Virus record (IMG/VR): IMGVR_UViG_3300025120_010521 | DNA: 64,000 nucleotides | Strand: one strand, 5' to 3' | From: a virus | Lineage: Duplodnaviria; Caudoviricetes | In this document: in pieces, positions 31,122-34,610 of the stretch | How positions within the stretch are numbered: position 1 is the first letter of the stretch | How the letters are laid out: each line of letters opens with the position of its first letter | The notes under the pieces: generated by a model | What the model saw: only the letters and a program-made list of their open reading frames with translations | Database searches by the model: none | Told to the model about the DNA's origin: nothing | Program-made: the position numbers and the translations under genes

Positions 31122-31517
31122 TTAATTTGCTAAAGGATTTGTTGCTTTTAATCTTACTTCTTCAATTTTAGAATCTTGTAATTCATTTACTTTTGATTGA
31201 ATTTCAATATCTTTTTGTGCTTCGGCCATTTCTGTCCATAGCTCTTCTACATCTGCCCAAAGTTCATTAATACCTTCGTCTGATTCAGAACTCATTTTAT
31301 CTTCAATTATTTTGATTCTATCAATTACTTCGACTCTGATGTTAGCAATTTTATCATTTACAGATGTAAGATCTACTGTTTGATTTACAATAAAATCTTT
31401 ATTTTCAATTGCTGATAGTCTTGTATTAAATTCACCCCATGCGTAGAATCCACCACCAATTGCACCTATTACACCAATAAGCGATGCATAAGTTGTTAGT
31501 TTATCAATTATTTTCAT
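31122..31517 (-). CDS. N-terminal TM + coiled-coil protein
   Basis: LIGVIGAIGGGFYAWGEF followed by heptad-rich helix. Confidence 0.7.
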   Translation of the reverse strand: MKIIDKLTTYASLIGVIGAIGGGFYAWGEFNTRLSAIENKDFIVNQTVDLTSVNDKIANIRVEVIDRIKIIEDKMSSESDEGINELWADVEELWTEMAEAQKDIEIQSKVNELQDSKIEEVRLKATNPLAN

Positions 31518-33366
31518 TTCTAAGTACCTCTAATTCGGCTTGTAGCCTTGCTATATCGTTGTTTACTTTATTTACCTTTAGTTCGTGCTGTGCCACAGGA
31601 TCTGACTGTATATAAGAAGTTAATGTAACATCTTGGTATATTGACCTATTATATGCCATTAATATAGTATCTTCAGCATACCAATCTGGATTGTCTTGTA
31701 GTTTTCTTGTGTCATAAAACTGTTGGTTTGCGTATTCAGTTATGTCAGGTTGATCTTCAATCATACCTTGTAATGTTACAATTGATATAACTTTTAATTT
31801 CTGATCAAGTGTTTTTAATTTTGATTCTAATTTTTTAAGTACTTTTTCCACTTTGGCTTGAATTTCGCTAACTTCTGATTCTACACTATCGGTATCAACA
31901 CTTGCATCTGCACCATCTTGTTCATCAGTGGATGCTTCTTCGTTACCGTCTTCCACTGACTCTTCTTCATTACCAGTGGACTCTTCTTGTTCAGTTGTTT
32001 CAGCTTCTTCTGATTCCGTAGACTCAGTTTCACTCTCTGTGCTTTCAGCTTCCGTTTCTGACGGTTCAGACTCTGTCGATGTTTCAGTACTAGGTTCACT
32101 TTCAGTTGTTTCCGTTTCTGTAGTTGGTTCTGATTCTGTTTCAACTGTTTCTTCACTAGTATTTACTGTTTCAGATTCTGTTGTAGGTTCTTCTTCTACT
32201 ACTGGACTTTCTTCAATTGGTGCTTCTTCTTCAACTGTTGGTTCTTCCACAGTAGGTTCTTCTTCTGTAGGTGTTGCAAATTCTTCTGTGACCATTTCTG
32301 TTACTGCTTCAAAAAACTGTTCTTCTGTAATGCCTTCTTCAACCAATGCTTCTTCAAACGTTTCTGTTAATCCTTCTTCTTCAAGTATCGCTGTAAAGTT
32401 CTCTTCAAATGATTCCTGGAATGCCTGTTGTTCGATCTCTACTGTTGGTTCTTCAATTGTAGGTTCCGCTACTTCAACTGTAGGTTCTTCAACAGCAATT
32501 TCTTCAACACCTTCCACTATTTCTTCAATAGGAATGTTTTCAATGATGTTTTCTACTTCTTCAATGGCTTCATTTGCTTCTTCAATCTCTTCTTCTTGTT
32601 CTACAGTTAATGGTGTGTAATCAATATCAGCTATTGTCATTTCTAATGCCGCACCTATTAAATTTGGTCCTTGTAGGCCACTGGTGTTACTTGAATTATT
32701 GCCATCTGTACCTGTCCATTGCCAGTCAAAGTTTCTAGAACCTTCTCCTGTGTATGTTACTGAATCTTGGTGTATAGCTGTATTACTATTGTAACCAGCG
32801 TCTGTGTTCCTTGTTTGCTCTACTGTGGCCAATACATTGCCACTGGCATCTTTGATTTCTACTTTAACTGTAAATGAGTCTTGGGCACCTGCAGATGATC
32901 CACATTTGTAACTTGAACTTTGCCATTCACAGTTCTGCTGTTCTGTGGTTGACTTTAGTGTAACACCACCATCTAGCATCTGTGCATCTGTTGTAGTTGT
33001 GCCACCGTTTTGTTTGTCTACTGTGATGTTCTCTAATGATCCTGATGTGCCTATTGTTATGTTACCATTTGATTCTATATCTTTGGTTCCAGCAGTTCCC
33101 CATTCTTTACCTGTACCTGATCTTACATCAAACCCTTGATTGGTCGTATCACCTTGTTGGTATGCTGGTTGATTACTGCCTGAACAACCTATACCTGCAG
33201 GTCCATTACCACTTGCTCTGTTGTTCGTACAGGCTTGGTTGCCTGTGTTAGGCAGTAAGTTTCCTGATGTGGCCGTTTCCGCATAAACGTCTGTGTTCTG
33301 CACAAAGGCTTGAATAGCCATCAGTGCTAGTATAAAGAAAAGCGACTGTTTCCAACGTTTAATCAT
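31504..33366 (-). CDS. Exported protein with a long acidic E/T/S-rich repeat stalk
   Basis: Signal peptide, Cys-containing N-terminal beta domain, ~250 aa E/T/S/P-rich region, C-terminal coiled coil. Confidence 0.8.
   Translation of the reverse strand: MIKRWKQSLFFILALMAIQAFVQNTDVYAETATSGNLLPNTGNQACTNNRASGNGPAGIGCSGSNQPAYQQGDTTNQGFDVRSGTGKEWGTAGTKDIESNGNITIGTSGSLENITVDKQNGGTTTTDAQMLDGGVTLKSTTEQQNCEWQSSSYKCGSSAGAQDSFTVKVEIKDASGNVLATVEQTRNTDAGYNSNTAIHQDSVTYTGEGSRNFDWQWTGTDGNNSSNTSGLQGPNLIGAALEMTIADIDYTPLTVEQEEEIEEANEAIEEVENIIENIPIEEIVEGVEEIAVEEPTVEVAEPTIEEPTVEIEQQAFQESFEENFTAILEEEGLTETFEEALVEEGITEEQFFEAVTEMVTEEFATPTEEEPTVEEPTVEEEAPIEESPVVEEEPTTESETVNTSEETVETESEPTTETETTESEPSTETSTESEPSETEAESTESETESTESEEAETTEQEESTGNEEESVEDGNEEASTDEQDGADASVDTDSVESEVSEIQAKVEKVLKKLESKLKTLDQKLKVISIVTLQGMIEDQPDITEYANQQFYDTRKLQDNPDWYAEDTILMAYNRSIYQDVTLTSYIQSDPVAQHELKVNKVNNDIARLQAELEVLRNENN
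31900..32600 (-). repeat. Degenerate EEPTVE/ETES coding repeats
   Basis: Repeated gtaggttcttc/gttggttcttc units on the + strand. Confidence 0.7.
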
Positions 33367-33425
33367 TTATAGTGCAACTCCAAAAAGAACTAATCCTATA
33401 ACCACCATTAATGGTTTAATTAAAT

Positions 33426-34313
33426 TTAATCCTTTTTTTTAGCGTCTACTTCATTTATTATAGAATCAGTATGCGGTGCAATTGGCTCTATTATAACCTT
33501 ATCAGTTGTAATAGTTGTTTCTGCTTTTGGCATAAGTGCTTCTGCTTCTTTGGCATTAGCTTCCGCTTGTTCTAATAACTCTGCTTGTAACTTTTGTAAC
33601 TCTTTAATTTGCTTCTCTAAATTTTTGTTGTCTTTTGCAATTTGTTTTATGTTTACTTTTAAAGTTTCATTTTCTTCAAGTACGCCTTCGTCTTTCATAA
33701 TACGTTCATCAATTTCTAAACGTGTATCCATTTTTTCAACATACTTATCGTAATCTGGTCTTTCAATATCGTATTTGTCCCATTGTGCTTTTGCATCTTT
33801 ACCAATCTTACCTTCAAAAGGACATGGCGTACCTGCTTGTTCCATTGATTCAAACACACGTGGATCTTGGCAGAGTATAGCAACTGCGGCAACCTTCATA
33901 CCATAATCGTTCAATAATTTTGACAGTTTCATACGTTCACAATTCATATCTCTTGCAGTTGAACCACCTGATAAACCAACACCTGGTAATTGTAAACCAC
34001 CTGATCTACCAACTGCACAAACATCTTGTGAATAAGCACTCATACTTGGTGCACCTGCACTTGGAACTGGTATAGTGTTTTTGTTATTTGTTGTATTAGT
34101 AGTATCGTTGTTGGTAGTAGAATTGCTAGAAGATCCTGACTGATATGTTGTTGTAGTTTCAGCCGCATAACCACCTGATATAGTAGTGTTTGACCCTGAT
34201 GTGTTTGTTTGTGAATTTGTAGTTGCACCTGAGTTTGTAACATCTGCATAAGCAGATAATGATACAAAACCAAAAAGTGTGGCGATCGCAATTGTTCTTA
34301 TAAAATTGTACAT
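33426..34313 (-). CDS. Exported Cys-rich protein with T/N-rich N-terminus; -1 frame extension to 33367 adds a TM anchor
   Basis: Signal peptide, CAVG..CER..LC..PCP, coiled coil; A8GG at 33431-33440. Confidence 0.8.
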   Translation of the reverse strand: MYNFIRTIAIATLFGFVSLSAYADVTNSGATTNSQTNTSGSNTTISGGYAAETTTTYQSGSSSNSTTNNDTTNTTNNKNTIPVPSAGAPSMSAYSQDVCAVGRSGGLQLPGVGLSGGSTARDMNCERMKLSKLLNDYGMKVAAVAILCQDPRVFESMEQAGTPCPFEGKIGKDAKAQWDKYDIERPDYDKYVEKMDTRLEIDERIMKDEGVLEENETLKVNIKQIAKDNKNLEKQIKELQKLQAELLEQAEANAKEAEALMPKAETTITTDKVIIEPIAPHTDSIINEVDAKKKD

Positions 34314-34415: not shown

Positions 34416-34610
34416 TTAGTGTTTTTCGCAAAAATCTTTTGATGCTGATAAACCACCTTCTTTACCATAGACCCATACGTAACTTGATACTGTACTGCCA
34501 TCTTCGTTGACGTTACATTTTTTACCAAATGACATTCTTGGATCTTTAGGTACTATTGAACAACCTGTAAATAATATTACTGTTGCTAATATTAGTAGTG
34601 TTTTTCCCAT
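34416..34610 (-). CDS. Small lipoprotein
   Basis: Lipobox FTGC, two further Cys. Confidence 0.75.
   Translation of the reverse strand: MGKTLLILATVILFTGCSIVPKDPRMSFGKKCNVNEDGSTVSSYVWVYGKEGGLSASKDFCEKH

Follow-up and report, generated by a model that had tools for sequence, protein, structure and literature searches.

Does the gene at positions 33426..34313 give rise to one exported protein or to two, one of which carries a membrane anchor? The question is posed by the 3' end of this ORF (minus strand, 295 aa; gene 1 in what follows), which reads GCT AAA AAA AAG GAT TAA in the window, by which we mean the whole analysed stretch of 64,000 nucleotides from the IMG/VR virus record IMGVR_UViG_3300025120_010521. 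An earlier note on this DNA had drawn attention to the A8 run before the stop codon, to a hydrophobic segment in the -1 frame behind it, and to a TAA that closes this segment directly against the ATG of the next gene. Coordinates and translation agree with this layout, the elements of which are as follows.

33426..34313, minus strand: gene 1, 0-frame ORF of 295 aa with a signal-peptide-like N-terminus, a four-Cys domain, a coiled coil and a Lys-rich end
34245..34313, minus strand: predicted Sec-type signal peptide, residues 1-23, from translation and alignment
33433-33440, minus strand: A8 run, from the sequence
33432-33438, minus strand: slippery heptamer A_AAA_AAG, in phase with gene 1 and within the A8 run
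33426..33428, minus strand: 0-frame stop TAA, one codon past the heptamer
33370..33432, minus strand: -1 extension of 21 codons encoding a hydrophobic C-terminal tail, from the translation
33404..33415, minus strand: palindrome ACCATTAATGGT, pointed out in the earlier note, unsupported as a frameshift stimulator
33378..33381, minus strand: GGAG, probable ribosome-binding site of gene 2, 11 nt before its ATG
33367..33369, minus strand: -1 frame stop TAA, abutting the ATG of gene 2, from the sequence

Read in the -1 frame, the run continues as K K G L N L I K P L M V V I G L V L F G V A L, and the predicted trans-frame product has 315 aa. Since a TAA in the -1 frame stands immediately 5' of the A8 run (gcTAAaaa), this frame is open solely from the run onward. 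The start codon of gene 2 is the ATG at 33364-33366 (minus strand). The GGAG sits within the Phe-Gly-Val codons of the tail, and TTTGGAG or TTTGGAA recurs among the tails of relatives; this stretch may be doubly constrained, by the codons of the tail and by the ribosome-binding site of gene 2. A promoter and terminator scan found none between genes 1 and 2 on the coding strand, and an Rfam scan of positions 33250-33600 gave no match.

We suggest, with a probability of roughly 0.6, that gene 1 is decoded in two ways and that a ribosomal -1 shift adds the hydrophobic tail. Most ribosomes would stay in the 0 frame and terminate one codon past the A-run, releasing a 295-aa exported protein that would be soluble in the periplasm once its signal peptide has been removed. 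Some would slip by -1 with the Lys tRNAs on the AAA and AAG of A_AAA_AAG, add 21 codons and give a 315-aa isoform with a hydrophobic, membrane-anchoring tail at its C-terminus, which would tether the gene 1 protein to the inner membrane if the topology is as predicted. Shifted ribosomes would terminate exactly at the gene 2 start, and translation of gene 2 may be coupled to the shift. For a stop-transfer anchor the tail has odd features, namely a core of only about 15 residues and nothing after it. The predicted anchored isoform would have its Lys cluster on the periplasmic side and no cytoplasmic tail, which is an unusual topology.

The heptamer by itself does not make this case. In-phase A_AAA_AAG occurs eight times among the 82 ORFs of the window, and as seven of these copies lie in other, ordinary genes, the motif is evidently tolerated; AAA and AAG are used 1360 and 261 times as Lys codons in the window, so that AAG accounts for 16%. 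The -1 ORF behind the heptamer has 21 codons in gene 1 and 1-14 codons at the other in-phase sites. With the motif within what chance would give, the case has to be built on conservation across homologues.

We compared homologous 3' ends from 80 metagenome loci, 160 viral-contig loci and three cultured phages. In 56 of 182 distinct 3' ends, the -1 frame encodes a hydrophobic C-terminal tail, and the layout described above was seen at 24 of 79 metagenome loci in addition to the window. In most tail-bearing relatives the tail ends at the gene 2 start or a few bases from it, abutting or overlapping. Every one of the 56 tail-bearing ends has an in-phase slippery heptamer, versus 6 of 130 tail-less ends (last 21 codons), and in all 56 the heptamer lies in the overlap that reaches from the last -1-frame stop to the 0-frame stop and spans 2-21 codons (median 9). 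Nearest the 0-frame stop, the heptamer is A_AAA_AAG in 33 ends, A_AAA_AAA in 16 and C_CCA_AAG in two; the other five were scored as A_AAC_CCA (three) or A_AAA_AAT (two) and also have A_AAA_AAA or A_AAA_AAG a few codons upstream, inside the overlap. Run length ranges from A6 to A10 among tail-bearing homologues, with A9-A10 in 28 of the 56. The A6 (GGA AAA AAG) and A7 (GAA AAA AAG) lineages always have the run in the phase that gives A_AAA_AAG. At one locus, L283, the sole good site is C_CCA_AAG, followed at once by TAG; no A-run there exceeds five, which makes polymerase slippage impossible at this locus.

The tails themselves carry a coding signature. Across 21 distinct tails there is not a single stop in the -1 frame, whereas the other two frames have 75 and 32, and the number for the -1 frame remained zero when the set grew from 21 to 56 (tails of 19-42 codons). 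Codon-pair comparisons among the 21 tails yield 867 synonymous to 2162 non-synonymous differences in the -1 frame, against 320:2561 and 104:2725 in the other frames; at codon positions 1, 2 and 3, variable columns number 18, 11 and 19 of 19, the second position being the most conserved. By these patterns of change, the -1 frame evolves as coding sequence. An in-frame version of the tail was found in none of 238 loci and 120 proteins. Since a single-base insertion would fuse the tail to gene 1, the frame break itself is apparently maintained, and it is conserved between lineages whose proteins diverge by as much as about 50% in sequence. A tree built on the N-terminal domain has tail-bearing members in both deep branches, and their distribution requires at least eight changes of state. 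The earlier note had asked whether homologues keep the heptamer with both frames, or whether they encode the membrane segment in frame and have no slippery site: the former holds for all 56 tail-bearing ends, the latter for none of the loci and proteins surveyed. Its proposal that programmed frameshifting makes secreted and anchored isoforms has gained comparative support from the in-phase heptamer, the coding signature and the tail that is never in frame. That an anchored isoform is made by recoding, be it ribosomal or transcriptional, we consider highly probable; that the ribosomal route is the dominant one in this window we hold with less assurance, but favour.

The site is reproduced outside the window. 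A 784-nt DNA contig (X1), a 421-nt DNA contig (X8) and a 450-nt contig from an RNA library (X13) show no differences or gaps across it; they stem from two DNA studies and one RNA library and are assembled contigs, in which minority length variants would be lost. A8 and the same tail recur in 20 of 20 contigs of close relatives from other samples (proteins 86-87% and 83% identical), on which gene callers leave a gap of 59-62 nt without annotation. On one RNA-library contig, positions 33279 and 33622 are linked by 328 different letters; this contig comes from runs X9 and X13, apparently a single data set deposited under two entries. As an alternative allele of the gene 1 3' end and gene 2 5' end is present in the same sample, we read this junction as a mosaic.

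In sister lineages with A6-A7 runs, GGAGG, AGGAG or GAGG stands 9-11 or 16 nt upstream of the heptamer at 17 of 22 distinct sites, against a background of 2.9% of windows in the gene 1 body (0.9% for the five-base motifs). Such a Shine-Dalgarno-like motif is absent upstream of the heptamer in the window and in other A8 sequences. Past the heptamer, an 8-bp stem begins after 5 nt in one sister lineage (SGKK; z -2.2 to -3.1), and a GC hairpin of 6 bp after 6 nt in the cultured Pelagibacter phage Mosig; in the window, the 75 nt downstream of the heptamer fold no better than shuffles (z about 0). The palindrome ACCATTAATGGT, previously suggested as a hairpin that might act as stimulator, forms about four effective pairs at a distance of 16-17 nt from the heptamer and without covariation, all of which speaks against such a role. 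A longer fold, in which a downstream U-run pairs with the A-run, was rejected, with a z of -1.8, a covariation term of -0.04 and the slippery site itself included in the pairing. Reporter assays in E. coli found shifting only 2-10 times above background (0.055%) where the heptamer lacks stimulators, and X_XXA_AAG motifs to be the most efficient heptamers (PMC4066793).

These data have to be weighed against readings that do not invoke a ribosomal shift. Homopolymers are error-prone, and the frame break could be a sequencing or assembly error, or the mark of a pseudogene. However, independent assemblies agree on exactly A8, which refutes the one-base assembly error considered at the outset, and the same break is conserved between lineages up to about 50% apart in protein sequence, so that the chance of either is negligible. 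Homopolymers are also mutable, and the two states of the site lie one base apart, which would suit phase variation at the DNA level, with A8 or A9 toggling the anchor within the phage population. This idea, likewise put forward in the earlier note, finds no support: all contigs, from different samples and studies, are in the same frame-interrupted state, the 20 of 20 contigs of relatives included (as assemblies, from which minority variants would drop out), the tail is in frame at none of the 238 loci and in none of the 120 proteins, and A6 runs are below hypermutable length. Phase variation is therefore very improbable. We find it just as hard to believe that the tail is a separate mini-protein made from its own start codon. 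Podovirus-type relatives do have a separate small membrane-protein ORF at this place, but the sole ATG in the -1 frame of the window leaves 13 codons, no start codon is conserved among the tails, and the tails start right at the slippery run. Somewhat less remote, though still improbable, is a scenario free of recoding, in which the 60-nt spacer is an untranslated leader of gene 2 that looks hydrophobic merely because of its U-richness. The GGAG 11 nt before the gene 2 ATG, which the most conserved part of the tail overlaps, fits such a leader. The absence of -1 stops from 21 and later 56 distinct sequences (75 and 32 in the other frames), the excess of synonymous change, the conserved second codon position and the perfect association between tail and heptamer (56/56) do not, and as tail-less relatives start gene 2 directly at the gene 1 stop, the spacer is unnecessary. 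Stop-codon readthrough from the tail into gene 2, which are in frame in the window, was rejected because their relative frame is not conserved.

Transcriptional slippage deserves more weight. As the main route, it would have RNA polymerase add one A at A8/T8, with A9 transcripts translated into the anchored isoform. Runs of nine slip efficiently in bacteria, and Thermus dnaX uses one (PMC5009743); half of the distinct tail-bearing relatives (28 of 56) have A9-A10 runs, and the lineage of the window combines a longer run, A8, with the absence of ribosomal stimulators. On the other hand, A8 is shorter than the length reported to be efficient (about nine or more), and the A6, A7 and C_CCA_AAG lineages cannot depend on the polymerase and keep the ribosomal phase. 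The RNA-library contig has A8 as its consensus as well, which is a weak argument since contigs lose minority variants. Taken together, slippage by the polymerase seems unlikely to be the main route here. Given the A9-A10 runs in half of the tail-bearing relatives, the family may nevertheless use it too; the A8 of the window is intermediate, and polymerase slippage may add to the shift there.

The arrangement that would support a ribosomal -1 shift also occurs in a cultured virus. The heptamer of Pelagibacter phage Mosig (MT647606) precedes the annotated stop of Mosig_00202 by 12 codons, with 10 codons between its AAG and the stop, and the -1 frame encodes a 28-residue extension that ends F-F-G-V-A-F. 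This tail fills the 56-nt gap between Mosig_00202 and Mosig_00201 (L085:2024-2079) and is absent from the deposited annotation. Podovirus-type relatives have a separate small ORF in place of the tail; its ATG overlaps the gene 1 stop (ATGA), and its product starts with a membrane segment, behind which comes a basic tail containing an N-P-Y-N/D-F motif. In HTVC202P this ORF lies unannotated between gp24 and gp25 (L086:3400-3520), and it is also found at L136, L156, L160, L250, L287 and other loci. The separate membrane ORF of these relatives suggests that the selected feature is a membrane segment beside gene 1.

As to the protein that would be anchored, the signal-peptide-like segment of gene 1 has a hydrophobic core followed by AYA/DV. 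A Thr/Asn/Ser-rich stretch comes after the signal peptide, and a conserved four-Cys domain lies at about residues 84-200, with C99, C125, C148 and C164 invariant in the alignment. The signal peptide and the four invariant cysteines argue for a periplasmic gene 1 product. Residues 24-100 (34000-34245, minus strand) are rich in Thr, Asn, Ser and Gly and of low complexity, yet almost invariant among homologues of 70-90% identity; this is unusual for low-complexity sequence such as the mature N-terminus of gene 1. Gene 1 matches PHROG 20531, whose function is unknown, and the protein atlas placed it in unnamed viral clusters only. An AlphaFold2 model (42 sequences) reached a mean pLDDT of 53. Gene 1 belongs to a cassette with the following further members, for none of which, nor for gene 1, Pfam and NCBIfam hold a family.

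31504..33366, minus strand: gene 2, 620 aa, with a signal peptide, a long acidic Glu/Thr/Ser stretch and a C-terminal coiled coil
31122..31517, minus strand: gene 3, 131 aa, with an N-terminal transmembrane segment and a coiled coil; third in the conserved cassette
34416..34610, minus strand: small ORF, 64 aa, upstream of gene 1, with a lipoprotein-type N-terminus (LFTGC)

The order gene 1, gene 2 (430-680 aa), gene 3 (110-130 aa) recurs in Mosig, HTVC202P and HTVC033P, the signal peptide and acidic stretch of gene 2 and the membrane segment and coiled coil of gene 3 having been read from the copies in the window. Gene 2 likewise follows gene 1 in metagenome contigs, and relatives have a gene of 64-75 aa at the position equivalent to the small ORF. 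With the membrane segment and coiled coil of gene 3, the small lipoprotein ORF upstream, and a location four genes past a lysozyme gene in HTVC033P, the cassette is reminiscent of a spanin-like lysis complex. A spanin-like or otherwise trans-envelope role is only a resemblance at this point; the cassette may make a periplasm-spanning complex in infected SAR11-type cells. A literature search found no account of this recoding site or of the cassette.

It is a tentative idea, and in our estimate rather doubtful, that the recoding site serves as the stoichiometry device of an undescribed trans-envelope complex of SAR11-type phages, with a ratio retuned by lineage. Shifting ribosomes alone would make the anchored gene 1 isoform and would end exactly at the gene 2 start, which would couple its amount to that of the gene 2 protein, and the ratio would be retuned via the type of heptamer, the length of the A-run, the stimulators, or the provision of the anchor as a separate small gene.

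Judging from its relatives and its neighbours, the DNA of the window is that of a giant marine phage, not bacterial. Close homologues of gene 1 lie on IMG/VR viral contigs, one of them a complete 328-kb genome with terminal repeats, and the genes neighbouring gene 1 match phage families. The four-Cys domain is found in the cultured Pelagibacter phages HTVC202P, Baldr, Mosig, HTVC033P, HTVC023P and HTVC115P, as well as in Roseobacter phages and one Ralstonia phage, and gene 1 matches more than 8000 ocean-metagenome protein clusters. From the cultured pelagiphage homologues we infer a SAR11-type host for the giant phage of the window; SAR11 are the most numerous marine bacteria. A tail-less gene 1 homologue of 58% identity lies on a 20-kb contig (contig 17; L003) of the Pelagibacteraceae single-cell genome AG-439-D15. 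This contig is probably phage DNA in an infected cell, which supports SAR11 as host of the family. The shiftiness of A_AAA_AAG in E. coli has been attributed to its sole tRNA-Lys (PMC5009743). In two Pelagibacteraceae genomes, tRNA-Lys(UUU) is the sole tRNA-Lys found. The complete genome of a related giant phage (G001; IMGVR_UViG_3300020477_000990, 328,149 bp with terminal repeats) has 15 different tRNA genes, no tRNA-Lys among them, and its gene 1 lacks the tail.

Phages are known to use programmed frameshifting chiefly in tail-assembly and capsid genes. A -1 frameshift in E. coli copA reportedly gives soluble and membrane-bound products from one gene, CopA(Z) and CopA, in work attributed to Meydan et al. 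2017; the proposed outcome for gene 1 is similar, but the copA shift cuts a transporter down to a soluble chaperone, whereas the gene 1 shift would add a membrane segment. Lambda G/GT resembles gene 1 in that one mRNA of a phage yields short and long forms through a conserved -1 frameshift close to the 3' end of the gene (PMC5009743). It differs in its heptamer and in that G and GT are cytoplasmic assembly factors, whereas the gene 1 products would be exported and the extension would be an anchor. The tau/gamma site of E. coli dnaX has the same heptamer, A_AAA_AAG, decoded by the sole tRNA-Lys(UUU) (PMC5009743), and the sister lineages have their stimulators placed as in dnaX, the Shine-Dalgarno-like motif about 10 nt before the heptamer and the hairpin 5-6 nt after it. 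The gene families are unrelated, however, the window's own lineage has neither stimulator, and the dnaX shift truncates the protein where the gene 1 shift would extend it with a hydrophobic tail. Thermus thermophilus dnaX, in which transcription slips on a run of 9, has its counterpart in the A9-A10 runs of half of the tail-bearing relatives; the window has A8, other lineages have A6-A7 or C_CCA_AAG, and the assembled contigs, from which minority variants would drop out, show no RNA heterogeneity. As dnaX takes the ribosomal route in E. coli and that of transcriptional slippage in Thermus (PMC5009743), the gene 1 family may, by analogy, alternate between ribosomal and polymerase slippage. Slippage on an A7 run in the GP gene of Ebola virus decides between soluble sGP and transmembrane GP (PMC5009743). 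In gene 1, too, one slippery A-run would separate the soluble from the membrane-anchored form of an exported viral protein. In Ebola, however, a viral RNA polymerase slips in a eukaryotic host, whereas the phage gene would be read by a slipping bacterial ribosome (or RNA polymerase); the gene 1 extension, moreover, has just 21 residues. The gene 1 site would thus join the recoding sites of the dnaX type. Its proposed anchor-toggling output is new for phages as far as we found, the literature search having turned up no description of a toggled membrane anchor as recoding output in phages.

If our reading is correct, frameshifting sets whether an exported phage protein is soluble or tethered to a membrane, in a very abundant gene family common to phages that infect SAR11, and gene callers omit the tail, even in the cultured Mosig. 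With its different heptamers, run lengths, stimulators and the split-gene alternative, the family is a natural series for the evolution of recoding signals, and a cultured virus-host pair exists in which the frameshift prediction can be tested.

Many tail-less relatives have the gene 2 ATG right behind the gene 1 stop. Three loci (L020:2290-2330, L017 and L048) keep an in-phase A_AAA_AAG (E-E-K-K), the -1 frame shutting after one codon and the 0 frame extending to ...F-N-S-A-G-K, which looks like the relic of a recoding site. Many tail-less forms, as well as the 0-frame product of Mosig, have Gly-Lys or Gly-Arg as their last two residues (AGK, DGR, PGR, GGR), possibly a C-terminal motif conserved in the unshifted product.
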